Part shown: one piece after another, positions 10,899-40,674 of the stretch | Numbering within the stretch: position 1 is the stretch's first letter | Layout: each line of letters opens with the position of its first letter | The notes under the pieces: generated by a model | What the model saw: the letters and a program-made list of their open reading frames with translations, nothing else | Databases searched by the model: none | Told to the model about the DNA's origin: nothing | Position numbers and translations under genes: made by a program | DNA from: a virus | Length of the DNA stretch: 41,346 nt | Direction: 5' to 3' (one strand) | UHGV virus genome: UHGV-0007810

Positions 10899-11229
10899 AT
10901 CAGCAGCAGAGCGCAAAGCCGCTCAGAGAGCCAGACAAGCTGCATCTGGTGTGCGTAAGCTGGAGATTGTGCTTGATGCTCAGGAAATTGAAATGCTTGA
11001 GCGTAACTGTGCCGCGCGTCGCCCCGGGCGTGCGCCTTACGAATTTGGTGAGTATATAGCGTTACTGATCCGCCAGGATGATGTACGCGTGCGCGGGCGT
11101 ATAAAATCGATCAGCAGAAAACGTTGCGGTAAGTGCGGCGAGAGAGTTCCAGTTAATTCATGCCCGTGCAATGGTGACTCGCAATGTTGGGTGACCAAAG
11201 GCTGGCATGAAACGAAATTAATAGTGTGA
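10891..11229 (+). CDS. Hypothetical basic protein with Cys-rich C-terminus
   Basis: 112 aa; AGGAAA Shine-Dalgarno; C-x2-C ... C-x-C cluster; its stop codon lies inside the 12-bp palindrome at 11226. Confidence 0.5.
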   Translation: MAKSAAERKAAQRARQAASGVRKLEIVLDAQEIEMLERNCAARRPGRAPYEFGEYIALLIRQDDVRVRGRIKSISRKRCGKCGERVPVNSCPCNGDSQCWVTKGWHETKLIV

Positions 11230-11237
11230 CATGTCAC
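11226..11237. repeat. Perfect 12-bp palindrome GTGACATGTCAC (copy 1 of 3)
   Basis: Exact; 41 bp upstream of a terminator hairpin. Confidence 0.8.
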
Positions 11238-13490: not shown

Positions 13491-13502
13491 GTGACATGTC
13501 AC
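13491..13502. repeat. Perfect 12-bp palindrome GTGACATGTCAC (copy 2 of 3)
   Basis: Exact; directly abuts the hairpin at 13467-13486. Confidence 0.8.
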
Positions 13503-14076: not shown

Positions 14077-14153
14077 TGGCGTGGCATGCAGGATTCGAAC
14101 CTGCGACCAACCGCTTAGAAGGCGGTTGCTCTGTCCAACTGAGCTAATGCCAC
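14077..14153 (-). tRNA. tRNA-Arg (anticodon UCU)
   Basis: Reverse complement folds as a cloverleaf: acceptor GTGGCAT/ATGCCAC, D-stem GCTC/GAGC, anticodon stem ACCGC/GCGGT with loop CTTCTAA (anticodon TCT), T-arm GCAGG-TTCGAAT-CCTGC, discriminator G and CCA. Confidence 0.9.
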
Positions 14154-23222: not shown

Positions 23223-23767
23223 TGTGCGATCCGGTTATTGCTGGTGGCGCAATGCTCGCCATGAGTGGCATTCAGGCATACACCCAGTACCAACAGGGAA
23301 AGTATGCCTCGAAGGTTGCAGAAGCGAACGCAGATATAGCCACTGCTCAGGCAAATGATGCAATAAACAGAGGTAACGCTGAAGCTGAGCAACGGCGCAG
23401 AGAGACCCGACAGCGGCTTGGTACACAGGCGGCGACAATGGGGGCTACCGGCGCTGATTTATCTACAGGTAACGCGCTGGATATATTTGACGACACTGCC
23501 CAGTTTGGCGCTCTTGATTCGCTGACGACGGTGAATAACGCGCAACGCGAGGCTTACGGTTATCAGGTTCAGGCTGCCAACTATAAAGCAGAAGCCAGTT
23601 CAGCCCGTAAACAGGGGAATGTGGGAGCAGCAACAACATTGCTCACTGCGCCTCTGAAGGCATACGGTGCGTACCAGATGTTTGGTGGGACGTGGAGTCC
23701 GTTTACTCAAAGCACTCCTGCGCCAATCGGGGCAGCAGCAGGAACCAGATTACCCGGAGGATTATAA
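23222..23767 (+). CDS. Internal virion / ejection protein (T7 gp14-like)
   Basis: 181 aa; N-terminus MCDPVIAGGAMLAMSGIQAY resembles the T7 gp14 N-terminus as recalled; Ala/Gln-rich. Confidence 0.55.
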   Translation: MCDPVIAGGAMLAMSGIQAYTQYQQGKYASKVAEANADIATAQANDAINRGNAEAEQRRRETRQRLGTQAATMGATGADLSTGNALDIFDDTAQFGALDSLTTVNNAQREAYGYQVQAANYKAEASSARKQGNVGAATTLLTAPLKAYGAYQMFGGTWSPFTQSTPAPIGAAAGTRLPGGL

Positions 23768-26280
23768 TGCCAGTCGTACCAACAGTATCCGGACGTCAGG
23801 TTGAGAGCCGTGGAGTTCAGTCAGCAGGCTTGCAGACGTTTTCTCAGCCAGGTATTGGTGATGCTTTTGTTCTGGCAGGGGCAGAGACTATTGATGTTTT
23901 TGGTCAGGCAAAACAGCGTGCCAATATCGCTCTGGCTCAGGAGGCATCTCTTAACCTCAGTCAGATAAGCAGCGATCTGCTGAATAACCCTGAAACAGGG
24001 TTGCTTAACCTGAAAGGGAAAAATGCTATTGGAAAAGGCCATGAGTATACGCAGCAGTTTGATGCTCAGGTCGAACAACTGGCTATGTCGCTGCCGGATG
24101 AACAGGCTCGTAATACTTTCATGCAGCAGGCGCAGCAGCAGCGCATTCAGTTCACTACGCAGGCCGGGCGGCACGAGATAGGGCAAATAAACGCCTACGA
24201 AGAAGGCCAGTTTCAGGCTACGCTGCTGAACAATGGTAAAAATGCCGCAGCATTGTATGGCGACAACGCCGCATACGTATTGGCTAATAAGCAAACTTTC
24301 CAGCAAATTGAGGATTACGGCATTGCGCATGGCTGGAGCGACGAGCAAATCCAGGCCAAGAAAGTCGAGTTTAAAGAGAAGGTTGCTGATGCCGCATTGT
24401 CCCAGTGGTCGGCAAACAATGCGACCGCATTCATCCAAAGTAATGGCGAGTTAAGTGATACTGCTGCTGGAGCTCGCCGTGCTGTAGCAGATAGTGACTC
24501 TTCCGAGCGTGCCCGTGGCATACGCAACAATAACCCAGGAAATCTCGAATACAGCAAAACTAATCCGTGGGTAGGCCAGACCGGTGATGATGGTCGATTT
24601 GCTAAATTCGAAACACCTGAACACGGGATTCGTGCATTAGGGCGAAACCTGATGTCGTATCAGAGGCAGGGTATTGATACCGTCAGCGAGATAATTAATC
24701 GCTGGGCACCGCCTACTGATAAAAATGACACTATGTCGTATATCAAAGCAGTGTGCGAACAACTTGGCGTTTCTGCTGATGAGCCTCTCGATGCATCTAA
24801 TCCTGATACCCTGAAGGCGCTTTGTGCAGCCATTATCCATCATGAGAACGGTAGCCAGCCATACAGTGATCAGCAGTTAACTGCTGGTGTCAGTGCAGCA
24901 CTTGGTTTATCAACAATTCCAACCAACACCAAACGCTATACCGGTAATGCAGCATTCGATGCGGCATCTCCTGAGGCGCAGGCAAGTTTTATGCGACAGG
25001 CGGATCAACTGCGTCGGCAGCAGCAGGCTGAATATAAAACGATGATTGACAGCCAGGTTCGCGATGCGACAGCTGCGTATATGCGTGGCGTTGAATTTCC
25101 TAACCCACCTGGTGAGGCTGATTTTATTGCAGCTTATGGAGTCAGAGAAGGAAACCTGCGATATACCGAGTTCAGAAATACGCAAATCGCCGGACAGTAT
25201 ATAGGCTCTTTCCGCAACATGCCGACAAGCAGCATTACAGCATATGTTGAGCAATTACGCCCGGATACTGGTGAGACAGGGGAGGGTTATGCGGCACGAG
25301 CCGCTCTTTATGACAACGTTGTGTCGGCTGCAAGTCAGGTGATAAAGCAGCGACAGGCTGATCCTGTACAGTTCTCTCTTGCCGCCGGACAGGCAAAGCC
25401 TATCGACATGAGCAATAAGGATAACTTTGGACAGAGCGTTGCCTTGCGTGCTGCTCAGGTCAGTGACCTTGCTAAGTCATATGGCACTCCACTGACGTTC
25501 TTTTCCAAAGACGAGGCCAATCAGATCGGTGTTTTCTTTCGTGATGCGCCCGTTTCCCAACAGGCAGCATATCTCGATACCATCAGGCAGAGCACTGGTG
25601 GTGGGCAGGTGTATATGTCAGCACTACAGCAGATCAGTGCCAACGCTCCATCTGCTGCCGTTGCCGGGATACTGATGGATAAGCCAGGTGGTATTTTGGC
25701 AGAAAAAAACTGGTTTAATCCGGATGTTTCCGTGTCTCCTGAAACCGCTGCGCAGACAATTCTTGCTGGCGCGGCGGCTCGTAAAGGTACTGATGACGCG
25801 AAAGGTATTCCGATGCCTAAAGATGCTGATCTCCGCCTTGAGTTTTCTGACATGGTGAAGGATGCATTTGCTGGTGATGCTCAGGGGGCATCAATGGCAT
25901 ACGAGATCGCAAAGGACTATTACGCAGGTGTGATGGCGAAAAAAGGCGTGGTATCAGGCGAAATTGACAATGATATCTGGAAACAGGCTGTTAACGTAGC
26001 TACAGGTGGCGTGCATGACTATAACGGAATGGGGAATGTTCTTTTGCCGTGGGGAATGTCTGCAGAGCAATTCGATAAGCAGGTTAATCAGGCTTGGAAT
26101 GAACAAGTTGTTGGCACAGGGATAAAAACACCGCCTGGTCAGTATGGTTTGCAAAGTTACGGCGATAGTCAGTACCTGGTGAAACTTGGTACTGGTTATC
26201 TGCTAAAAGATGATGGTTCTCCCGTTGTTCTTGATCTGACACAGAAGCGTCAGAGATTCTCCGGAGATATTCCGCAATGA
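23767..26280 (+). CDS. Internal virion / ejection protein with a conserved-looking central block
   Basis: About 837 aa from ATG 23767 (TAATG overlap; the ORF-track start 23692 overlaps the previous gene); central motif RGIRNNNPGNLEY...WVGQTGDDGRFAKF. Confidence 0.6.
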   Translation: MPVVPTVSGRQVESRGVQSAGLQTFSQPGIGDAFVLAGAETIDVFGQAKQRANIALAQEASLNLSQISSDLLNNPETGLLNLKGKNAIGKGHEYTQQFDAQVEQLAMSLPDEQARNTFMQQAQQQRIQFTTQAGRHEIGQINAYEEGQFQATLLNNGKNAAALYGDNAAYVLANKQTFQQIEDYGIAHGWSDEQIQAKKVEFKEKVADAALSQWSANNATAFIQSNGELSDTAAGARRAVADSDSSERARGIRNNNPGNLEYSKTNPWVGQTGDDGRFAKFETPEHGIRALGRNLMSYQRQGIDTVSEIINRWAPPTDKNDTMSYIKAVCEQLGVSADEPLDASNPDTLKALCAAIIHHENGSQPYSDQQLTAGVSAALGLSTIPTNTKRYTGNAAFDAASPEAQASFMRQADQLRRQQQAEYKTMIDSQVRDATAAYMRGVEFPNPPGEADFIAAYGVREGNLRYTEFRNTQIAGQYIGSFRNMPTSSITAYVEQLRPDTGETGEGYAARAALYDNVVSAASQVIKQRQADPVQFSLAAGQAKPIDMSNKDNFGQSVALRAAQVSDLAKSYGTPLTFFSKDEANQIGVFFRDAPVSQQAAYLDTIRQSTGGGQVYMSALQQISANAPSAAVAGILMDKPGGILAEKNWFNPDVSVSPETAAQTILAGAAARKGTDDAKGIPMPKDADLRLEFSDMVKDAFAGDAQGASMAYEIAKDYYAGVMAKKGVVSGEIDNDIWKQAVNVATGGVHDYNGMGNVLLPWGMSAEQFDKQVNQAWNEQVVGTGIKTPPGQYGLQSYGDSQYLVKLGTGYLLKDDGSPVVLDLTQKRQRFSGDIPQ

Positions 26281-28079
26281 GTTACTTTGGCCTTAATCCA
26301 GTAAACCAGAATCAGCAGCTTGACGAAGCAGCATCAAATCCAGCGGGCTTTAACAGCGATGTTGGTTTTTTCGACAATGCTGTAGGAGCGGCATTGTCTG
26401 GTTTGTACTCCGGGCTGGTGGCAAAGCCAGACCAGTTGCTATGGGCAGGAATGGATAAAATCGTATCCCCGATTGCTCAGTTTGTTAACGAAAACACCTC
26501 GTTCAATGATACTTCAGTTTCATACATTGCCGAGCAGAGAAAACTAGCAGAGCAGCAGGTTAAGCGGCTGACGCCTGATGCGGCGACAACCGGAACCGCC
26601 GGGCAGGTCCTTTATGGGTTGTTCGATATGGGCGGGCAGGCTGTTGTCGGTACAACGCTCGGTGGTCCGGTCGGAGGTGCTGCGGCGGTAACTTCGCTAC
26701 AGGGTTTTTCTGAGTTTGAACGGCTGACAGCACAGGGTGTTGATTTCAGGACGGCGCAGGAAGCGGGATTAGTGCAGGGTATTACTGCTGGTGCCGGAAC
26801 ACTGATCCCTATGAGCCTCGGGTTACGTGCTGGTGGTGCGCTGGCGGAAGGTGTGGCGGCTCAGCTTGCGCGGACGGGTGAAAGTTCAGTGCGACGCGCC
26901 GCAGCAACAGCAGTACGTGCAACGCCAGATATTGCCTATGCCGCAGGTACAAATATTGCGTTCGGTATGGCACAGCGTGGGCTTACTGCAAAAACGCTTC
27001 GTGATGGTGGCTATAGCGAAATGGCTAACCAGTATGATGTGTTGGATCGACAGGCAATTGCTATTGATGCTGTTCTTGGGGTGGCGTTTGGTGGTGTCGG
27101 CAGATTTATTAACTCTCGCGGCGAGTCTACAAACGCACCAAATTTTTCACCAGTTGATGTCGATGCTGCACTGGCGGCGAATGCCGCTCATCATGCTGAA
27201 ATTGATATTGCGCCCGGCGTGCCGATCAACGTGCTTTCGCGCAATTCTCACATTCAGGCTCTGCGAAAAGCTATGTCTGATGTTAGCCAGGGGAGACCTG
27301 TAGACGTTGCCAGCATTGTTGAGTCTGCATCTTTCAGTGAAATTCCTGGGCGCAAGAGTCTGCTGTCTCAGGCAGTTAATGAGGCTCTGTCATCTGTAGA
27401 TGATGGAGTAACGGCGCGCGCTATAGAAAATCGGTTGCTTGAAGAACAGGCCGCGCAGCTTTTGCCGCGTGGAGATAGACAGGTTTACCAGTCTGAAATC
27501 GCTAATAGCCAACGAATTATTGAAAATCTCACTAAACAGCGTGCACAAATTCTTGCAGAAGAGCCAACCGGTAGCGGTAAAGCTTTGTCTCGTGCTCGAT
27601 CAGATAAACAGGCCAGACTTCGCGATATTGACCAACGAATCCGGCAGGCACAAGAACGCCTGGAATTTTCCCGTAACGCGTTGGCACCGCATGAGCCTGG
27701 CGGTCAGTTTTTTGAAGCTCGAGCAGAACTGGCACGGAGACAGCAGGCTGAAAGTGAACTTAATGCTCAGGCTGTTTCATTCTATAAAACAGCAGAGGTC
27801 AGGACGCCAGACGAAGTAGCTCCTTTTGAGCCTGATAAAATATTGCAACAGGCAGAACAAAAAATGATGGCGGATCAGGCAGGAGATATTGATCTGCGCA
27901 TAGCTGAAGACTCGCTGCTTGAATCACCTGACATGATAATCACCGTGCTGGATGATGATGGTAATCCACAATCGCGCAGCGCGCGTGAAGTACTGGATGA
28001 AGCGAACAGGGAAAGTGAGCAGGCAATACAGGATTCCAGCCTGTTTGATGTCGCTGTGGCGTGTTTCTTGAGAGGTTAA
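26277..28079 (+). CDS. Internal virion / ejection protein
   Basis: 600 aa; ATGA overlap with the upstream gene; Ala/Gly-rich N-terminal half, coiled-coil C-terminal half. Confidence 0.55.
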   Translation: MSYFGLNPVNQNQQLDEAASNPAGFNSDVGFFDNAVGAALSGLYSGLVAKPDQLLWAGMDKIVSPIAQFVNENTSFNDTSVSYIAEQRKLAEQQVKRLTPDAATTGTAGQVLYGLFDMGGQAVVGTTLGGPVGGAAAVTSLQGFSEFERLTAQGVDFRTAQEAGLVQGITAGAGTLIPMSLGLRAGGALAEGVAAQLARTGESSVRRAAATAVRATPDIAYAAGTNIAFGMAQRGLTAKTLRDGGYSEMANQYDVLDRQAIAIDAVLGVAFGGVGRFINSRGESTNAPNFSPVDVDAALAANAAHHAEIDIAPGVPINVLSRNSHIQALRKAMSDVSQGRPVDVASIVESASFSEIPGRKSLLSQAVNEALSSVDDGVTARAIENRLLEEQAAQLLPRGDRQVYQSEIANSQRIIENLTKQRAQILAEEPTGSGKALSRARSDKQARLRDIDQRIRQAQERLEFSRNALAPHEPGGQFFEARAELARRQQAESELNAQAVSFYKTAEVRTPDEVAPFEPDKILQQAEQKMMADQAGDIDLRIAEDSLLESPDMIITVLDDDGNPQSRSAREVLDEANRESEQAIQDSSLFDVAVACFLRG

Positions 28080-28084
28080 ATTAA

Positions 28085-30559
28085 ATGAGACAGGAATGTA
28101 TACAAGCGGTCCAGCAGGCGGCGCAGCGCACGTTAACGGCGCGAGAAATACAGAACATTGAAGACCGCATTTATCGAAATATGCGCTCCATTGCTCGTGA
28201 TGACCCGATGTCGTGGCGACAACTTTCCGAATCAGAACGGTTGTATCGTGCAGCACAATTGGCATCTGAAGAATTACAGCGAGAAGCGGCATTAAAGAAA
28301 CGTCGTGTGGCTCTCACTATAGCCGCACGTCAGAGATTGGATAAATTTATCAATAGCTATCAAGGGGCTGATGGGAAACTTGGCGCTCTTAACCGTACTA
28401 TTGCTTTTAATGCAGACGGTAAATCGAATTTCCTCTCTGTTGAGTCCAGAACAAAAGCCACTCGTGATTATGCATTGAGTCAATTGCAGGAGGCATTCGA
28501 AGCAGTTGATCCTCGCTTTTTTGGCCTGTTTGAAGATGAAGCGGGCGTGCGTGACCTGGTATATGAAATGCGAGGGCAAAATACTGGCAATGCTAAAGCA
28601 AGAAAAGGTGCTAAGGCGTGGAGAGAAGTGACAGATCTACTCCGCCGCCGGTTTAATGATGCTGGTGGGGACATTGGCTATCTCGAAAACTGGGGGATCC
28701 CTCAACATCATTCTATGGAAAAGGTTGGGGCGGTATCAAAAGATAAATGGGTTAGCGATGTTATAGGTAAGCTGGATCGCAAATATTATACCCGAGCCGA
28801 TGGACAACTGATGAACGATGCCGAGTTGTCTGCATTTCTTGGAGAGGCTTATAACACGATCGCTACTGGTGGGCTGAATAAGCTTACTGATACCGGAATG
28901 CGAATTTCCGGCGCACGTGCTAACCGTGGTAATGCATCACGACAGATACATTTCAAAGATGCAGATTCCTATCTGCAATATCAGCAACTTTATGGCGATC
29001 GCTCTCTATGGGAAATCATGGTCGGTCACCTGGAAGGTATCAGTAAAGATATTGCTCTGGTGGAAACATATGGTCCAAACCCCGATCATGTTTTCCGCTC
29101 CCTTCTTGATCAGGTTAAGGCAGAAACGGCAACAGCTAACCCGAGTAAAACCGGTAGCGTCGAGCGTCTGGCGAACAAAACAGAGAACTTGTACAACTTT
29201 ATTTCCGGAAAAACACAGCCTGTAGCGAATCCCCACATCGCGCGATGGTCTGACAATATCCGCAACTGGCTGGTTGCCAGCAGACTCGGATCCGCGTTGC
29301 TGTCATCGTTCTCTGATCTTGGAACCATGTATCTGTCTGCGAAGGTTACCAACCTTCCAATGAACCAGTTATTTCGCAACCAGCTTGAAGCTATGGACCC
29401 AACGAACCGTACTGAGCTTGCGCGGGCGCGCCGCGCTGGCCTGGCGATGGAATCTCTACTTGGCAGCGTTAACCGCTGGGCGATGGATAATATGGGGCCG
29501 TCTGTGTCTCGTTGGGCGGCAACGGCGGTAATGCGTGCCAGTGGGCTTACAGCATGGTCAGATGCGCACAAGCGCGCCTATGGCGTAACCATGATGGGAA
29601 GCCTGGGAGAAGTAGTGTCACGGACACCAGACCTTCGTAGCCTCGATGACTCTGATTTTCGTATCCTGAAAAGTAAAGGGATTACTGACACAGACTGGAG
29701 CGTATGGAAGCTGGCGCAACAGGAGGACTGGGGGAACGGTAATAATACGATGCTGACACCGGAAAGCATTATGCGTATCCCTGATTCAGCAGTTAAACAT
29801 CTTGGTGAGCCTGAACGCGTGAAATTTGAGGCAATGCGTAAACTGCTCGGTGCCGTAACTGAAGAAGTTGATATGGCTGTTATTACACCGGGCGCACGTG
29901 AGCAGATGTTCGTAGGGTCTGGTCTTCAGCGTGGAACATGGAAAGGTGAATTAACGAGAAGTGTTTTCCTGTTTAAATCGTTCCCTATCTCGGTTGTTAT
30001 GCGTCACTGGTCACGCGCTATGGGTATGCCGTCTGCTGGTGGGCGTGCAGCATATATAGCAACGTTTTTAGCAAGCACAACCATGCTTGGTGCTCTTTCC
30101 ATGCAGATTACTGATCTTATTAATGGGAGAAATCCAAAGGAAATGACCGGTGACCACATGGTTAAATTCTGGATAAATGCATTTTTAAAAGGTGGCGGGG
30201 CTGGGTTGTACGGTGATTTTCTTTTCTCTGACCACACTAGGTACGGGAGCGGCGCGCTGGCGTCGATGCTTGGCCCGGTAGCTGGTCTGGTTGATGATGT
30301 AGTGAAGATTACTCAGGGCATACCGTTAAATGCTGTGGAAGGGAAGAGTGAGCAGACTGGTGGTGATCTGGTGAAGCTGGGGAAAGGTTTGATGCCTGGT
30401 GCGAATCTCTGGTACTTGAAGGCGGCTCTCGATCACATGATCTTTAACCAGATGCAGGAGTATTTTTCACCAGGTTATTTGCGTAAAATGGAGCAACGTT
30501 CGAAGAAAGAGTTTAACCAGACATACTGGTGGCGACCACAGGATGTCACTCCGCAATAA
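28085..30559 (+). CDS. Internal virion / ejection protein (T7 gp16-position)
   Basis: 824 aa; last and largest of the ejection-protein block; hydrophobic stretch near residues 640-680. Confidence 0.55.
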   Translation: MRQECIQAVQQAAQRTLTAREIQNIEDRIYRNMRSIARDDPMSWRQLSESERLYRAAQLASEELQREAALKKRRVALTIAARQRLDKFINSYQGADGKLGALNRTIAFNADGKSNFLSVESRTKATRDYALSQLQEAFEAVDPRFFGLFEDEAGVRDLVYEMRGQNTGNAKARKGAKAWREVTDLLRRRFNDAGGDIGYLENWGIPQHHSMEKVGAVSKDKWVSDVIGKLDRKYYTRADGQLMNDAELSAFLGEAYNTIATGGLNKLTDTGMRISGARANRGNASRQIHFKDADSYLQYQQLYGDRSLWEIMVGHLEGISKDIALVETYGPNPDHVFRSLLDQVKAETATANPSKTGSVERLANKTENLYNFISGKTQPVANPHIARWSDNIRNWLVASRLGSALLSSFSDLGTMYLSAKVTNLPMNQLFRNQLEAMDPTNRTELARARRAGLAMESLLGSVNRWAMDNMGPSVSRWAATAVMRASGLTAWSDAHKRAYGVTMMGSLGEVVSRTPDLRSLDDSDFRILKSKGITDTDWSVWKLAQQEDWGNGNNTMLTPESIMRIPDSAVKHLGEPERVKFEAMRKLLGAVTEEVDMAVITPGAREQMFVGSGLQRGTWKGELTRSVFLFKSFPISVVMRHWSRAMGMPSAGGRAAYIATFLASTTMLGALSMQITDLINGRNPKEMTGDHMVKFWINAFLKGGGAGLYGDFLFSDHTRYGSGALASMLGPVAGLVDDVVKITQGIPLNAVEGKSEQTGGDLVKLGKGLMPGANLWYLKAALDHMIFNQMQEYFSPGYLRKMEQRSKKEFNQTYWWRPQDVTPQ

Positions 30560-30568
30560 GGAAGTGTT

Positions 30569-30742
30569 GTGTTTTTAATTATTTTGAGTGTGATAATTTC
30601 TGGTGGATTGTTATTTATTGACCGCTACAAATATTTTCTTAACCCTCAGACTCAAGCTATTTGCTGGTTCATCTTTGTTGTGCAGGGAGTAGTTCTTGTT
30701 GCAAGCCTTATTGAGGGGAGGCCTCTTATTTTTACTGGGTAA
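30569..30742 (+). CDS. Small membrane protein (57 aa, two predicted TM helices)
   Basis: Not in the ORF track; hand-translated from GTG 30569 (AAGGAAG 5 nt upstream): MFLIILSVIISGGLLFIDRY...AICWFIFVVQGVVLVASLI.... Confidence 0.35.
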   Translation: MFLIILSVIISGGLLFIDRYKYFLNPQTQAICWFIFVVQGVVLVASLIEGRPLIFTG

Positions 30743-30755
30743 ATTAGGTGACTAC

Positions 30756-31052
30756 ATGCAAGCTATAGGATTCATTGTTTATATCGTCGTTGGTCTTTTT
30801 CAGTTGGCAGCAATTATGGCTGGGCTTGAATCATGGTGGGGATTGCACTGGATAATTGCAGCCCCCATTGCTTTCATCGTGAGCTATATTCCATTTGTTG
30901 GAGCGATTGTTGGTATGGTTGGCGCTGTGGATGTATGGCGGTGGGAGTGGTGGCAGGCTGGCCTTCTCTTCTTTGGTGGGATCATCTTTGCTATTGTCTG
31001 CGGTGGAATGTCATCATTTTTCGAACGGCTATCATTCAGAAAAGGAACGTGA
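30756..31052 (+). CDS. Membrane protein (about 98 aa, three predicted TM helices)
   Basis: ATG 30756 with AGGTGA upstream; hydrophobic throughout; stop codon lies inside the 12-bp palindrome at 31049. Confidence 0.5.
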   Translation: MQAIGFIVYIVVGLFQLAAIMAGLESWWGLHWIIAAPIAFIVSYIPFVGAIVGMVGAVDVWRWEWWQAGLLFFGGIIFAIVCGGMSSFFERLSFRKGT

Positions 31053-31060
31053 CATGTCAC
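31049..31060. repeat. Perfect 12-bp palindrome GTGACATGTCAC (copy 3 of 3)
   Basis: Exact; directly abuts the terminator hairpin at 31061-31085. Confidence 0.8.
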
Positions 31061-31085
31061 AGGCCGCTTTCGCGGCCTTGTTTTT
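31061..31085 (+). terminator. Rho-independent terminator after the membrane-protein gene
   Basis: AGGCCGC-TTTC-GCGGCCT followed by TGTTTTT. Confidence 0.65.
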
Positions 31086-31245
31086 AACGAATGCCACCGC
31101 CACCCGGGCGGGAATCCGCAGAACGCCCACCGCAGCGGGAGCCGTCAGCGGCAGTATCGCTGTCGTGCTGACAACGACCGGCAAAGGCCTGAGTTGAAGC
31201 TACCAGAGACAACAAAACGAACAGTGCAGCAAATGCTTTTTTCAT
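31084..31245 (-). CDS. Possible small secreted peptide (53 aa with signal-peptide-like N-terminus)
   Basis: MKKAFAALFVLLSLVASTQAFA followed by a 31-aa Cys-containing tail; GC-rich segment, and the opposite strand also has an ORF, so coding status is uncertain. Confidence 0.3.
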   Translation of the reverse strand: MKKAFAALFVLLSLVASTQAFAGRCQHDSDTAADGSRCGGRSADSRPGGGGIR

Positions 31246-31338: not shown

Positions 31339-31884
31339 TTATTCCTTCCATTTATCAGAAAAAAGATCTTCTTCTAAAGGCATTGGTTCTGTTTTTGTTT
31401 TCTCAAAGAATTGATAACTGATAGTGATTGCTGCCTCTTTAAACTCTTCTTGCTCAGTTATGTTGTGGGCATCTGCGTCAACAAAAAACATAACCAGCGC
31501 ATCACGATTGTGATTTACCGAATAAACTAAAAAGCAATTACTTGTTGGTATGCATTTTACTTGCACAGACGCTATTTTTTTCCATGCATCCCAAGATGAT
31601 TTTTTACCAGTGTGTTTTTTATCACTATCTTCTGGAATATAGTCTTGGTTATCGACATGAGTATGCCTGACATTTAGTTTAAGCATTTCTGTCGGACGAG
31701 CAAATGCAGCATCTTTACCAAGAGATGGATGGTATCCCGTTTTCCAATACTGGGTAAAGGCATCAGATACTTTCTTCAGCTCAAGATCAGATGCACAAAG
31801 GGCCGAGAAATTTTGCGTATGCAATACTCGACCCTTATATCTGACAATTTGATTTTTATCATTCTGCGACGCAGACGAACTCAT
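31339..31884 (-). CDS. Hypothetical protein with possible YafO-like toxin domain (AT-rich moron)
   Basis: About 181 aa from ATG 31884 (AAGGAAA 5 nt upstream); visibly AT-rich relative to the surrounding DNA; GYHPSLGKDAAF...VRHTHV...FLVYSV resembles YafO-family toxins as recalled (unverified). Confidence 0.55.
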   Translation of the reverse strand: MSSSASQNDKNQIVRYKGRVLHTQNFSALCASDLELKKVSDAFTQYWKTGYHPSLGKDAAFARPTEMLKLNVRHTHVDNQDYIPEDSDKKHTGKKSSWDAWKKIASVQVKCIPTSNCFLVYSVNHNRDALVMFFVDADAHNITEQEEFKEAAITISYQFFEKTKTEPMPLEEDLFSDKWKE

Positions 31885-32038
31885 AATTTTCCTTATTGTT
31901 ACGAGAATCAAAGAAAGCGCGGGATACGCGACTTGCGTGATCTTTTGTCATAGTAACTTTTACGCACTCTACGCTTCCATTGAAAGAACGTCTTGCGGCA
32001 GCTTGCGCTCTACGCATCTGCAATTTTTCGTTTCGCAT
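31859..32038 (-). CDS. Hypothetical small basic protein (59 aa) upstream of the YafO-like gene
   Basis: Not in the ORF track; hand-translated MRNEKLQMRRAQAAARRSFNGSVECVKVTMTKDHASRVSRAFFDSRNNKENYEFVCVAE; GAGGT Shine-Dalgarno 7 nt upstream; overlaps the downstream gene by 26 nt. Confidence 0.3.
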   Translation of the reverse strand: MRNEKLQMRRAQAAARRSFNGSVECVKVTMTKDHASRVSRAFFDSRNNKENYEFVCVAE

Positions 32039-32185: not shown

Positions 32186-32881
32186 TCAGAAGAACCCTGC
32201 CTTGTCGTTGATGTACTCCGCGTGCGTCTGGATATCACGCAGGCATTTGCTCACACCGACGATGTAGCAGAACATGGTGGTCAGCTCCGCCGCCGCGCCC
32301 GATACGTCGTGCCCGTCGTCCTGTAACTGGTTCAGCAGATTCATCAGCAGTGAGTTCTCCGTCAGGCCGAGAACACCAGACGGCGAATGAATCAGGCTGC
32401 GGTAGCCGGGCTTCAGTGGGGCACTGTAGGTTTTGTTCTCTATCTTCATCGCCTGCATCACTGCTGATGCTGTGGCGTTGGCTACCTGGTCGGCAACCAT
32501 CTTTATGCGCTCTTCCTGCGGGAGCGAGTTTTTAATGTAACTTCCGGTGCGGCGGATCTGAGGAAGAACCTCACCTGTAACCCATTTACGAAAGCGGTAT
32601 GGGATAGTGCCTGGTGTCACTGCGTCGCGGCAGCGGAGGATCAGTGTGTAGAGGCCTGACTCGGAGATGATGATCGATTCTTGCTCACCGCCAGGGGTGT
32701 CGGTTGAAGCGACGCCCTTCTCATCATCATCAAGTTTTCGAACAGCATCTCGATGGTTTGCTATGCCTATAGCCCGACAAACATCTGAAGCGATAAACCA
32801 TGGCTCACCATTAATGACGATTACTCGTATATCGGCTTGGGATTCGAAAGAAAAAATGGACGTGCTTTTTGTAGCTGTCAT
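32186..32881 (-). CDS. Bro-N domain protein (antirepressor-like), C-terminal domain paralogous to 34029..34286
   Basis: 231 aa; N-terminal FESQADIRVIVINGEPWFIASDVCRAIGIANHRDAVRKL is a classic Bro-N signature; C-terminal ~70 aa align with the small LexA-box gene product. Confidence 0.75.
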   Translation of the reverse strand: MTATKSTSIFSFESQADIRVIVINGEPWFIASDVCRAIGIANHRDAVRKLDDDEKGVASTDTPGGEQESIIISESGLYTLILRCRDAVTPGTIPYRFRKWVTGEVLPQIRRTGSYIKNSLPQEERIKMVADQVANATASAVMQAMKIENKTYSAPLKPGYRSLIHSPSGVLGLTENSLLMNLLNQLQDDGHDVSGAAAELTTMFCYIVGVSKCLRDIQTHAEYINDKAGFF

Positions 32882-33150
32882 AGTGGTTACCTTTTAGTCA
32901 GGTTAATCACCACTACCGACGCCAATCGGTTGGTGGTGAACTGTGCAGGGTTGGCGTAACCGGCTAAAAGGACCCGGCGCACCTTTCGGTGCCCCCACAC
33001 AGCCCACCATAATACGAATGTGGCCGTGCTATACGCATAAAAAAACCGCTTGCGCGGTGAATGCGCCTTTTAGTAATCCGGGACGCCAATCCCGGCACTG
33101 GATTTTGCCAGTGCCCGATTACTATGGCACAAGAGGAGTGCAATGTAAAT

Positions 33151-33278: not shown

Positions 33279-34007
33279 ATGGAAGTTTTCTGGATAGTTG
33301 TTGGTGTTGTTACGGTGATTATTTACGTTATCAACCAGAACAGGACTAAGGTCTCTGATCGCACAGTCGTTAATCATCGCAAAACGATAAAGACCGAAGA
33401 TGGAGAAATAACGATTAATCGTACACAGGTGATAGACCACACCTCCACTCAGTTTCAAAAAACTGGAGGTAATGCGCCTAATATTTCCGCACCTCCTGCT
33501 TATGATAGTGCGGTAATCCAGACATATTATAAACAGCAGGAGTTAGCAAAAGAGAGGCAACTGATTCAGCCAAAGCCATTTACAGCAGAGCTTCCACCTG
33601 GAGTGTCAACGCGTCCGGCATATCATGGAAGATTCCCTGGTGATGACATATCGTCTCAGTCATCTAAAAAAGCACCTCAGGCAGTATCAGAGCCAGCAAG
33701 AATACCTTCTGTATCGCCGCCAAAAGAAGAATCAGCTAACAGAGTTTCAAGTGGTAGCAAGCAGTGCTTGCGATGCAGAATAAACCTTCCATATGAAAAA
33801 TTCAGGAAATCGTCAAAAAATCCAGATGGATTGACTAAGTGGTGTGCAAGGTGTCTCGATGGTCCAAAGAATACACGCCATATGAAGTGGTGCCCAATTT
33901 GTAATGTCCGCAGAAAACGAACCAGCTTTTACCCTAATAATCAAAATGCGGATGGCTTAATGGCATGGTGCAAAACGTGCTGGGACGAGCACAAAGCGAA
34001 ACGATAG
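33279..34007 (+). CDS. Membrane-anchored protein with tandem C-x2-C ... WC-x2-C zinc-ribbon-like repeats
   Basis: 242 aa; N-terminal TM helix (FWIVVGVVTVIIYVI), Pro/Ser-rich linker, two repeats CLRCR...DGLTKWCARC and CPICN...DGLMAWCKTC. Confidence 0.6.
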   Translation: MEVFWIVVGVVTVIIYVINQNRTKVSDRTVVNHRKTIKTEDGEITINRTQVIDHTSTQFQKTGGNAPNISAPPAYDSAVIQTYYKQQELAKERQLIQPKPFTAELPPGVSTRPAYHGRFPGDDISSQSSKKAPQAVSEPARIPSVSPPKEESANRVSSGSKQCLRCRINLPYEKFRKSSKNPDGLTKWCARCLDGPKNTRHMKWCPICNVRRKRTSFYPNNQNADGLMAWCKTCWDEHKAKR

Positions 34008-37536: not shown

Positions 37537-37571
37537 AGCTGACAGTTTAAGTGGATCTGTATATACAAAAT

Positions 37572-37988
37572 ATGGTGCACATTATGTCAGCTCAACTAAC
37601 TAGTGAATCTTTAAATCAATGGCTTAGCATGAGTTCTCTTGCTGCGGTTATAGCAGGAGTTCCTCCTGAGGTTGCTTTAGGGTCTTTGGCTGGTGCGGTA
37701 ATTTTTGTTACCTCTGCGGTAGAGTACCCAATTCATCGTCGCGTACTCTTATCGATGCTTAGCTTTCTCTGCGGCCTTCTTTTTTATAAACCAGCAGCAT
37801 CAATTCTTATCGGCATAGCCAGCCTGATCCCTACTATCACGCAGGACTCTTTTGAAAAAGGGATTGTTTTCTCTGCTGGCGCATTCGTGTCAGCAATTGT
37901 TGCTGTGCGTATTGGTATATGGCTCTACCACCGTTCCGATAATCCACGCGAGTTAATTCCGGGGAGAAAAGACGATGGTAACGCATGA
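37572..37988 (+). CDS. Holin (putative, multi-TM), possible dual start
   Basis: 3-4 hydrophobic helices; two in-frame ATGs separated by three codons (M-V-H-I-M), reminiscent of holin/antiholin dual-start motifs; start uncertain (ORF track gives GTG 37551). Confidence 0.5.
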   Translation: MVHIMSAQLTSESLNQWLSMSSLAAVIAGVPPEVALGSLAGAVIFVTSAVEYPIHRRVLLSMLSFLCGLLFYKPAASILIGIASLIPTITQDSFEKGIVFSAGAFVSAIVAVRIGIWLYHRSDNPRELIPGRKDDGNA

Positions 37989-38283
37989 GTTTTTTTTGCT
38001 TATCACCAATGCAGTTATTTGTACTGGCATAGCAATTCGCGTTGTCACATTCCGGCGTAACGGATCTCAACATCGAAGATGGGGGGGGTGGCTTGCTTAT
38101 TTCCTGATTGTTGCTGCGGCCAGTATTCCGGTTCGTGTTGCCTATGCAATCTGGTTCCGCACGCCAATGGCTGTGGATTTATCTGAGGTCATTATCAACG
38201 CTGTCATGCTCGCTGCGGTTATTAAAACGCGCGGTAACGTCGTTCAAATTTTCAAAGTATCGAGGTCTAAACATGGAGATTAA
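37975..38283 (+). CDS. Second small membrane protein of the lysis cassette (holin/antiholin-like)
   Basis: 102 aa with 2-3 TM segments; GGAG Shine-Dalgarno; its end overlaps the endolysin start; contains a G8 tract. Confidence 0.45.
38081..38088. repeat. G8 homopolymer inside the lysis-cassette membrane-protein gene
   Basis: Eight consecutive G, in frame. Confidence 0.9.
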
Positions 38284-38902
38284 ACAATTCCAGCGAGCTG
38301 CTGGTATCAGCGAGGCGCTGGCTGCACGCTGGTTCTCGTATATAACTTCTGCGATGAGAGAGTTTGGTATCAGCAAACCAGAAGATCAGGCTATGTTTAT
38401 TGCTCAGGTCGGGCATGAGTCTGGAGGCTTCACCAGGTTGCAGGAGAATTTCAATTACAGCGTCACCGGACTGGCTAACTTCGTTCGTGCCGGTCGTCTC
38501 ACTCAGGGACAGGCCAACGCACTGGGTCGCCGTGCTGGTGAACCGCCATTACCACTCGAGCGCCAGCGTGCGATCGCAAATCTGGTGTACAGCAAACGCA
38601 TGGGGAACAATGCCCCCGGCGATGGCTGGAATTACCGAGGTCGCGGACTTATCCAGATTACCGGTTTGAATAACTATCGTGATTGCGGAAACGGCCTGAA
38701 AGTGGACCTGCTGGAGAATCCTGAACTGTTGGCGCAGGACGAATACGCGGCTCGTAGCGCGGCGTGGTTCTTCTCCAGCAAAGGCTGCATGAAGTATACC
38801 GGAGATATTGCACGTGTAACTCTGCTTATCAATGGTGGCCGGAACGGCATTGATGACCGGCGCGCGCGATACATCACTGCCAGTAAGGTGCTGGCGGTAT
38901 GA
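38273..38902 (+). CDS. Endolysin, glycoside hydrolase family 19 (chitinase-like)
   Basis: About 209 aa; motifs [13 protein letters not shown] and [11 protein letters not shown] are characteristic of phage GH19 endolysins; no N-terminal signal-anchor. Confidence 0.8.
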
Positions 38903-39381
38903 TCTGGGCATTCGCAAAAGCATACTGGAAACAGTTGGTTATCATGGCGATGTTTGCTGTTCTGGTCATATCAGGAGTTGTAGCCTGGAATGCACACGGC
39001 AGTCGTCAGTACGATGCCGGGTATGCACAGGCGAAAGAAGACCGCAAAACCGAAGATGAGAGAATTCGTCAGCACTACGAACAGGAGAAATCGATCAATG
39101 AACGTGAAGCGCAGCAGAGGATCGACCAGGCGCGCAATGATGCTCTTGATGCTGCCGCTCGCGCTGGCCGGTTGCAGCAACAGCTCGTTGCCATCCGTGA
39201 GCAGCTCAGGCACTATAACGCCATTGTCGGCGCTGGGTCGTCAGCCGCAGACACCGGAGTTTTGCTTGCCGACGTGTTCAGCAAATCTCTCGAGAGAAAT
39301 AGACAACTGGCAGAGTATGCTGACCGGGCAGCCGAAGCCGGAAGAGTCTGCGAAAAACAGTACGACACCCTGACCAGATAG
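38899..39381 (+). CDS. i-spanin (Rz-like)
   Basis: 160 aa; N-terminal TM helix then a charged coiled-coil domain; ATGA overlap with the endolysin stop. Confidence 0.7.
39098..39373 (+). CDS. o-spanin (Rz1-like lipoprotein) embedded in the i-spanin gene in the +1 frame
   Basis: ATG 39098 with AGGAGA upstream; signal peptide with lipobox LALAGC; Pro/Ser-rich mature part; wholly nested. Confidence 0.6.
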   Translation: MNVKRSRGSTRRAMMLLMLPLALAGCSNSSLPSVSSSGTITPLSALGRQPQTPEFCLPTCSANLSREIDNWQSMLTGQPKPEESAKNSTTP

Positions 39382-39600: not shown

Positions 39601-40140
39601 TTAATTAAACCAGCTGTCCGATTTGTTCTCTTCTGCTTTGCCCACGCTTTTCATCAGATCGCGACCGCCCTCAGTCATATTCCTGTTTGCGTCAGCTTCA
39701 GATTGCACCACATCGGTTTGCGCAGCTTTGTGCTTCAGTTCCTGATCGATAAATTCGTTTTCTCGCTTAACGCGGGCTTCTTCTTTCGCCAGCGCCAGTT
39801 TTTGTTTCTGAATCTCTAAGCTGCGTAGCTCATCTTCATAACTTTGATCGCGTTTTTTGTCCGCAGTGGCTTCGGCGTCCAGTTTATCCTGACGAGCTTT
39901 CTTATTTGCCGCTGCCGTTGCCGCTCTTTTGTTAGCGGCGGCCTGGGCGTTTGCGCGACGTTGCTTCTCTTGCTGGATTTCCCTGTTGCGCTCCGCGACC
40001 CATTCGTCATGCTGCCTTTGCTCTTCATTTTTACCTTGCTGTTCCGCTTCTGCGACAGCAGAGAGTTGATCCTGCAATGATGAGGCGATAGCCGGATAGC
40101 TTAAGGAGGTTAAGATGGCGCAAAGAAAAACTTTCTTCAT
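39601..40140 (-). CDS. Secreted coiled-coil protein (signal peptide)
   Basis: 179 aa; strong Shine-Dalgarno (AGGAGGAG); N-terminal signal peptide; K/E/Q/A-rich mature part. Confidence 0.6.
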   Translation of the reverse strand: MKKVFLCAILTSLSYPAIASSLQDQLSAVAEAEQQGKNEEQRQHDEWVAERNREIQQEKQRRANAQAAANKRAATAAANKKARQDKLDAEATADKKRDQSYEDELRSLEIQKQKLALAKEEARVKRENEFIDQELKHKAAQTDVVQSEADANRNMTEGGRDLMKSVGKAEENKSDSWFN

Positions 40141-40155
40141 GACTCCTCCTGATCA

Positions 40156-40674
40156 TTAGCTCTTTTCAGGACATTTCGTATTTGGCTGAATACGCGTTTC
40201 GTTATACGTCGTGGTAATAACAACGGCTAAACCTGTCGTAAACTGGCACTCTTTACCCACCTGGGTAGAGGTATACACTTTGGTGCCTTCCTTATACGTT
40301 AGAGAAACACCTTCCACTAAGGTTTTATCATTCACCATAGAACCCGCTGCCGCGCCAACAGCTCCGCCGCCAACTGCACCTGCCGTCGTTCCGGAATTGC
40401 TGCCAGACCCCACGTTGTGGCCGATTACACCGCCAGCGACTGCACCAATAAGCGCGCCGAAGGCTTGTGCGTTCCGTTTATTTTGGGAGTTGTCTACGGC
40501 AACTTTTGCGGGAAGAATGGAAATAATATTAACGGTTTTAGTTTCTTGTTTGGTATTCAGTTGATCGGTTTGATAAACATCGGCGGCATGATCATCAGCA
40601 TTTGACTGGCATCCTGCCAGAGTGAATGACGCTAACATTGCCACAGGCAGAAGACATTTTTTAAATTTCATCAC
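40156..40674 (-). CDS. Outer-membrane lipoprotein with glycine-zipper domain (YcfJ/SlyB-like)
   Basis: 172 aa; lipobox LAGC; GALIGAVAGGVIGHNVG glycine-zipper motif; AT-rich promoter region upstream (40680-40860). Confidence 0.65.
   Translation of the reverse strand: MMKFKKCLLPVAMLASFTLAGCQSNADDHAADVYQTDQLNTKQETKTVNIISILPAKVAVDNSQNKRNAQAFGALIGAVAGGVIGHNVGSGSNSGTTAGAVGGGAVGAAAGSMVNDKTLVEGVSLTYKEGTKVYTSTQVGKECQFTTGLAVVITTTYNETRIQPNTKCPEKS

Follow-up and report, generated by a model that had tools for sequence, protein, structure and literature searches.

Two small membrane-protein genes, here called ORF1 and ORF2 (ORF, open reading frame), form one allele of a hypervariable, interchangeable accessory cassette that ends the ejection-protein operon of the virus genome UHGV-0007810, a stretch of 41,346 nucleotides (nt) that we analysed at its full length and refer to as the window. 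On almost identical phage backbones, this slot alternates among at least four unrelated sets of envelope-targeted proteins, and it is dispensable for the virion module. Judged by its sequence, the window is an integrated epsilon15/phiV10-like (Uetakevirus) prophage of Escherichia coli: It matches phiV10, phiv142-3, HEMP4 and other Uetakevirus (epsilon15-like) phages at 96–98% and keeps the phiV10 gene order throughout. We regard it as integrated because an integrase-sized ORF lies at its left end, while at the right end a lysis cassette is followed by apparently chromosomal genes encoding a DUF5384 protein and a glycine-zipper protein.

An initial annotation, made from the letters of the window, had placed the pair directly after the last internal virion gene, and this position holds. 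The upstream neighbour encodes a protein of 824 amino acids (aa) that is 96.6% identical to phiV10 p20, matches phrog_684 (virion structural protein) over its full length and corresponds to epsilon15 gp17, a homologue of T7 gp16 (IVP-D, for internal virion protein D; PMC4819975). The region is laid out as follows, with positions counted from the first letter of the window:

23692-26280, 26277-28079 and 28085-30559: three large internal virion genes, corresponding to phiV10 p18-p20 and epsilon15 gp15-gp17
28085..30559, plus strand: gp17-like internal virion (ejection) protein, 824 aa, the last of the three and the left conserved flank of the cassette
30558..30564, plus strand: Shine-Dalgarno sequence of ORF1, AAGGAAG, overlapping the gp17 stop; called from the sequence, with equivalent purine-rich sites before the homologues
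30569..30742, plus strand: ORF1, 57 aa, GTG start, two-helix membrane hairpin as judged by hydropathy, homologues and selection
30746..30751, plus strand: Shine-Dalgarno sequence of ORF2, AGGTGA; called from the sequence, identical in Klebsiella homologues
30756..31052, plus strand: ORF2, 98 aa, ATG start, three predicted membrane segments, basic tail at the C-terminus; belongs to phrog_3075
31049..31060, no strand: GTGACATGTCAC, a perfect palindrome of 12 bp that overlaps the ORF2 stop; all cassette alleles share it as their conserved right boundary
31061..31085, plus strand: intrinsic terminator of the late operon, with a 7-bp GC-rich stem, a 4-nt loop and a T tract; annotated in phiV10 and epsilon15

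An exchangeable slot behind gp17

We surveyed 80 IMG/VR loci (L026–L105) whose gp17 C-terminus is 92–100% identical to that of the window. Between the gp17 stop codon (30557–30559 in the window) and the palindrome plus terminator, these loci carry four unrelated alleles:

Allele A: ORF1 and ORF2, always together; 37 of 80 loci
Allele B: a 46-aa two-helix protein of the phiV10 p21 type; 15 of 80 loci
Allele C: a 137-aa lipoprotein (phrog_8691) with the lipobox LISAC; 21 of 80 loci
Allele D: a 41-aa one-helix peptide plus a 128-aa lipoprotein (phrog_3716) with the lipobox LVGC; 6 of 80 loci

The one remaining locus ends too soon past gp17 to be scored. L040 and L061 exemplify the lipoprotein alleles. 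The allele breakpoints are exact, lying at the gp17 stop on the left and, on the right, at GTGACATGTCAC, which stands directly before a GGCCGC-N4-GCGGCC hairpin. Epsilon15 and SPN1S retain this right boundary of palindrome and hairpin; Klebsiella and Cronobacter, too, retain the palindrome. When cassette type was matched to each locus's own gp17 allele in search of co-variation, the association proved loose only, and gp17 clades with differences of less than 2% contained several cassette alleles.

The repertoire extends beyond these four alleles, as the first slot position is also filled by epsilon15 gp18 (64 aa) and, in another E. coli prophage, by a 113-aa membrane protein. In every allele, the first gene starts within ~10 nt of the gp17 stop or overlaps it. 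Both phiV10 p21/SPN1S_0020 (46 aa) and epsilon15 gp18 share with ORF1 the slot directly after gp17 as well as the palindrome and terminator behind it, and they follow the same design, in which a short basic loop joins an N-terminal to a C-terminal helix. However, neither shows similarity to ORF1 by BLASTP or hhalign, and neither is accompanied by ORF2. No annotated gene fills the slot in BcepC6B, VP5 and the pelagiphage Skadi-4, where the tail-fibre gene comes directly after the gp17 homologue; in MPK9 and YeP6, the annotated genes next after the gp17 homologue lie on the minus strand. As for the allele present in the window, a 501-bp cassette query found a 100% identical copy in the best-matching genome, that of E. 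coli PCN033, and was present in 216 of 5426 complete E. coli genomes.

Two constrained genes for small membrane proteins

ORF1 and ORF2 are genuine genes under purifying selection that encode small integral, predicted inner-membrane proteins. What the initial annotation had read from the letters was borne out: a tandem of two small membrane-protein ORFs, the first with a hand-found GTG start and missing from the ORF track, each with a Shine-Dalgarno sequence of its own (AAGGAAG and AGGTGA) and the pair ending at a terminator, which is a strong one. ORF1 starts at 30569, 9 nt past the gp17 stop, and its non-ATG start is conserved, being GTG in E. coli and Salmonella and TTG in Klebsiella, with a Shine-Dalgarno sequence ahead of each. 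Its absence from the ORF track fits with RefSeq, which leaves it unannotated in E. coli PCN033. We found 13 clusters of ORF1 homologues at 67–98% identity in E. coli, Citrobacter, Klebsiella, Salmonella and Enterobacter, and the ratio of nonsynonymous to synonymous substitution rates (dN/dS) is 0.19–0.28. The protein has two hydrophobic segments (approximately residues 1–17 and 30–50) separated by the basic loop DRYKY, from which the positive-inside rule predicts an N-out/C-out topology. A weak terminator-like site inside the gene (30712–30728) was rejected, as it folds no better than shuffled sequence (z-score 0.52). The guanine-cytosine (GC) content falls from 50.7% in the late operon to 36.8% in ORF1 and 46.5% in ORF2, a dip that hydrophobic codon usage alone can produce.

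ORF2 follows after a gap of 13 nt. Its residues 1–98 match positions 1–98 of the phrog_3075 profile (unknown function) with an E value of 5.4e-54. This full-length match, the family alignment and RefSeq all back the 98-aa start, and the 118-aa version with a TTG start that the mechanical ORF list had proposed was rejected. dN/dS is 0.03 against Klebsiella and 0.19 against Cronobacter. According to an AlphaFold2 model with a predicted local distance difference test (pLDDT) score of 89, ORF2 consists of three membrane segments and a basic C-terminal tail, with helices at residues 2–28, 32–42 plus 46–59 (kinked at Pro46) and 65–97. The membrane topology check suggested for the pair thus returned two hydrophobic helices for ORF1 and three predicted membrane segments for ORF2, as first described.

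How far does each gene travel, and in whose company? Cronobacter, Kosakonia and another type of Salmonella prophage have ORF2 homologues of 55–61% identity directly behind gp17 homologues that are just 24–27% identical, and ORF1 is absent from these loci. In a Salmonella Muenchen prophage, an ORF1 homologue (66% identity) is paired with the 128-aa lipoprotein instead of ORF2; ORF1 and ORF2 are therefore separable modules. A Yersinia homologue of ORF2 occupies the same inter-region, with a minus-strand gene between it and the ejection genes. Another homologue (64% identity) is retained in a widespread prophage remnant, where it adjoins Abi_2 and SocA_Panacea genes. On the metagenome scaffolds L111/L112 (2023–5312), this remnant comprises the N-terminus of a gp15-like SLT protein and the intact ORF2 homologue; recognisable gp16 and gp17 homologues have been lost, AlpA and integrase genes are also nearby, and the remnant is listed in 49 blocks of the collection. 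Further homologues have integrases and Bro-N genes in their vicinity or are located on plasmid-like contigs. In E. coli GPEC128-620 (L115, 4672–5386), behind an epsilon15-type gp17 of 918 aa, and overlapping it, comes a 113-aa membrane protein, and then a degraded ORF2, which has lost its start codon and is frameshifted, and which RefSeq annotates as a 95-aa protein.

Taken as a family, ORF2 is large. A profile search returned 743 clusters (at 50% identity) with E ≤ 1e-3, 315 of them with E ≤ 1e-10. Most members are stand-alone proteins of ~100 aa. Fusions also occur: when 35 longer proteins with the ORF2 domain were scanned with Pfam, the partners found were generic modules only (DUF805, RDD, zinc ribbons and MORN). 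Members in Microvirga, Desulfovibrio and Mailhella were seen at loci without a gp15–17 homologue or obvious phage genes.

What the cassette may do at the envelope

What could be the purpose of so variable a set of genes? Established is an accessory cassette of envelope genes beside the ejection genes, and such genes next to tail or ejection genes are already known as a kind. Superinfection exclusion is our best guess, albeit a tentative one: from the envelope, ORF1 and ORF2 may keep out incoming phage as its DNA enters the cell. We favour this reading by analogy with sieA, the gene found at the corresponding position in P22. Its product, an inner-membrane protein of three helices, blocks the injection of DNA, and mutations that escape it map to the ejection proteins gp16 and gp20 (PMC10883804). 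On one side of sieA is gene 16, the last gene for an ejection protein, and on the other the immI antirepressor region that precedes the tailspike gene, with sieA, mnt, arc and ant filling this stretch of P22; similarly, gp17 and the cassette are followed in the window by C4 and isrK RNAs and a Bro-N antirepressor, and then by the tailspike gene. ORF2 also resembles SieA in having three hydrophobic segments and in being a predicted integral protein of the inner membrane, going by its structural model. The likeness is positional and architectural only. Aligned by hhalign, the ORF2 family profile and SieA show no homology (probability 0.2%, 8 aligned columns), and SieA measures 162–164 aa against 57 aa for ORF1 and 98 aa for ORF2. 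The genes are also arranged differently: sieA runs convergently on the opposite strand, with an annotated promoter of its own. ORF1 and ORF2, by contrast, point the same way as the late operon, and no promoter was detected for them.

If ORF1 and ORF2 do exclude phage, both would insert into the inner membrane of the phage-carrying cell and act on the envelope, most likely by disturbing the trans-envelope channel that the ejection proteins of an incoming podophage build at the inner membrane. ORF2 would serve as the effector module, assisted by ORF1 as a small partner, and the lipoprotein alleles would do an equivalent job from the periplasmic or outer-membrane side. Synthesis would take place mainly with the late operon, since no separate promoter is visible, or else through weak, undetected transcription in the lysogen. 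Other exclusion systems offer parallels: T4 Imm is a small membrane protein, T5 Llp and the Cor proteins of phi80 and N15 are lipoproteins, all of them block the entry of related phages, and their genes often adjoin tail or receptor-binding genes. The alternative alleles at the slot are likewise lipoproteins, as are Llp and Cor, but scans against Pfam, NCBIfam and PADLOC, at the thresholds used for each, gave the cassette proteins no significant match and identified none of them as relatives of Imm, Llp or Cor.

Several observations weigh against exclusion. Two scans detected no sigma-70-like promoter on the plus strand at 28000–31000, although, relying on consensus only, they could have let weak or atypical promoters escape. 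With just 9 and 13 nt between the genes, an intergenic promoter would not fit, and ORF1 and ORF2 therefore look late-transcribed, which is odd for an exclusion function expressed from the prophage and unlike sieA; the terminator after ORF2 is the shared one of the late operon. The ORF2 domain, found outside recognisable phages and in fusions, is a general membrane module and not a fold specialised against phage. One E. coli remnant carries ORF2 as a pseudogene, and each of the two genes occurs without its partner in more distant prophages. Neither has a significant Pfam, NCBIfam or PADLOC match.

The wider function searches, which took in the alternative cassette proteins along with ORF1 and ORF2, returned from Pfam, NCBIfam, PHROGs and PADLOC only PHROGs without a function and sub-threshold noise. 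For none of ORF1, ORF2 and the two minus-strand genes downstream did PADLOC-DB 2.0 give a match at E ≤ 1. Foldseek, run with the ORF2 model against viral models, gave nothing at E ≤ 0.001, a sequence profile search of the PDB with ORF2 gave no match, and in the literature on Uetakevirus, phiV10 and epsilon15 gp18 functions we found no study of these genes. The initial annotation had proposed the pair as candidates for superinfection exclusion or for immunity against incoming phage DNA. Comparison with relatives supports an accessory envelope function, while homology to SieA, a match to a defence family and a promoter of their own were not found.

A rather unlikely alternative is that the cassette is cargo for lysogenic conversion or fitness, unrelated to exclusion, that alters the physiology of the host envelope (stress tolerance, permeability, serum or antimicrobial resistance) and is carried at a recombination-prone operon end simply since insertions are tolerated there. 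Lambda bor and lom are examples of such envelope conversion cargo. The size of the ORF2 family (743 clusters at E ≤ 1e-3), its presence in non-phage chromosomal contexts and on plasmid-like contigs and its fusions to generic membrane modules would all suit cargo, as would the low GC content of ORF1 relative to the late operon (36.8% against 50.7%) and the spread of the cassette to 216 of 5426 complete E. coli genomes. Its neighbours are cargo, too: a 53-aa secreted peptide (phrog_14503, 'moron') and a YafO-family toxin. Against this speaks the repeated placement directly behind a gp17-type gene in very divergent prophages, which suggests a link to ejection or late functions and not random cargo; the lack of a detected promoter of its own is a problem for cargo and for exclusion equally. 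The comparison with lambdoid morons (lambda lom and bor, the HK97 gp15 exclusion protein) is instructive here. These are extra genes between conserved late genes, ended by a terminator, often low in GC and often encoding envelope proteins, and the cassette is moron-like in its variable presence between conserved flanks. A terminator and a GC dip are seen here, too, the former being the shared one of the late operon and the latter of a kind that hydrophobic codon usage alone can cause. Classical morons are expressed in the prophage from a promoter of their own, whereas no promoter was detected for the cassette, nor is there homology.

We consider it quite improbable that the cassette instead helps the lytic cycle, being made late and modulating the infected envelope, be it in holin triggering, in an antiholin or lysis-inhibition-like role, or by blocking the ejection of progeny or sibling DNA into the dying cell. 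Such a helper would account for the tight packing, the co-orientation with the late operon, the shared terminator and the failure to detect a separate promoter, and for the start of every allele's first gene within ~10 nt of the gp17 stop or overlapping it. ORF2, with its three membrane segments and basic C-terminal tail, also recalls class I holins (three transmembrane helices, N-out/C-in, basic C-terminus) in size, predicted topology and apparent late expression. A holin-like role, which the initial annotation had kept as an option, fares poorly all the same. The match of ORF2 to Phage_holin_5_2 (PF16079) stays below threshold (E 0.027, 15.1 bits against a cut-off of 29.2) and recurs, weakly, in just 3 of 29 ORF2 family members, while ORF1 has no Pfam holin match. 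Furthermore, ORF2 lies outside the lysis cassette, which is complete and located ~6.5 kb away at 37551–39381, with two holin-family genes (PF16931 and PF05449), a GH19 endolysin and a DUF2514 spanin. The persistence of ORF2 homologues in prophage remnants and outside phages, also as fused proteins, would be unexpected for a lysis-timing factor. ORF1 lacks a cytoplasmic tail with charged residues, and its basic loop points to a hairpin of N-out/C-out topology, which class II holins do not have. Finally, the alleles are freely exchanged or absent in relatives. This exchange and absence, together with the complete lysis cassette elsewhere, make a holin role unlikely, and a virion role as well.

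An assembly role had likewise been left open at first, and the pair does come directly after the last ejection-protein gene, in apparent translational proximity to it; small hydrophobic proteins are, besides, easily missed by virion proteomics. That ORF1 and ORF2 are small virion or assembly components, packaged with or chaperoning gp15–gp17 and delivered to the recipient membrane, is nevertheless highly improbable, given that the slot holds lipoproteins with signal peptide and lipobox in 27 of 80 close relatives, which are exported and cannot be packaged, that the first-slot proteins ORF1, phiV10 p21 and epsilon15 gp18 are mutually non-homologous, that the slot is empty in the distant epsilon15-like phages BcepC6B, VP5 and Skadi-4, and that ORF2 relatives occur far from any virion genes.

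Exclusion at DNA entry thus being our preferred reading, what would follow from it? If the alleles are exclusion determinants, they would constitute a natural, compact set of at least four unrelated small envelope proteins directed at one infection step. This would be useful for understanding how podophage ejection proteins cross the inner membrane and for predicting phage-therapy failures from resident prophages, the carrier of the cassette being a common prophage type of E. coli, Salmonella and Klebsiella and the ORF1+ORF2 allele occurring in ~4% of complete E. coli genomes. It would also provide a first function for a large family of membrane domains for which neither Pfam nor NCBIfam has a matching curated model. 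One may go further, and we think this extension unlikely, and propose that the ORF2 domain family (at least 743 clusters at 50% identity) represents a new class of inner-membrane entry-exclusion module that targets gp17 (T7 gp16-type) channel-forming ejection proteins, and that the gp17-downstream slot bounded by GTGACATGTCAC is a dedicated exchange site for alternative exclusion specificities, namely membrane hairpins, ORF2 and lipoproteins. Should exclusion prove wrong, there is still a clean annotation to be had, with ORF1 as a previously unannotated gene, a corrected ORF2 start and a defined recombination hotspot.

The operon end and the surrounding prophage

The terminator hairpin, AGGCCGC-TTTC-GCGGCCT (31061–31078) followed by TGTTTTT, begins 8 nt past the ORF2 stop, and the whole element (31061–31085) also folds well on the minus strand, from which the genes downstream of the cassette converge on it. 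The palindrome ahead of it is not confined to the cassette boundary. GTGACATGTCAC has three exact copies in the window, against an estimated chance expectation of ~0.003, and all three lie at the ends of transcription units. The copy at 11226–11237 overlaps the stop of a 112-aa regulator-like ORF, ~40 nt before terS; that at 13491–13502 is found just past the terL terminator; and the third, at 31049–31060, is the one conserved in the epsilon15, SPN1S, Klebsiella and Cronobacter relatives. GTGACATGTCAC may be a protein-binding or an RNA-processing site. We also considered it as a packaging site or genome end, as the phiV10 record starts inside the palindrome, but this was uninformative, the record simply beginning after the stop of its last gene.

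Between the ejection genes and the tailspike gene, the window carries a P1/P7-type, immI-like antirepressor control module. It consists of a Bro-N antirepressor gene (32186–32881, minus strand) with a C4 antisense RNA (32929–33014, minus strand; Rfam 77.7 bits) and an isrK RNA (33039–33114, minus strand; Rfam 77.9 bits) directly upstream, both RNAs scoring above the gathering score. Closer to the cassette, 31084–31245 (minus strand) encodes the 53-aa peptide, which has a signal sequence and belongs to phrog_14503 ('membrane associated protein', moron category), and 31339–31911 (minus strand) holds the YafO-family toxin-like gene, which RefSeq names YafO family toxin and whose PF13957 match (23.2 bits) is under the cut-off of 25. 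Both genes are variably present among relatives.

Just past the lysis cassette, 39601–40674 (minus strand) encodes the DUF5384 protein and the glycine-zipper protein, the latter TraT-like, which are probably host or attachment-site-flanking genes that mark the end of the prophage. A tRNA-Arg gene (anticodon TCT; 14077–14153, minus strand) lies within the prophage, between the terminase and portal regions. Lastly, a 242-aa ORF at 33279–34007 (plus strand), between the antirepressor module and the gp19-like gene, has a sub-threshold match to Stc1 as its sole Pfam match and is 95% identical to a stretch of phage TL-2011b that is annotated just as a misc_feature.
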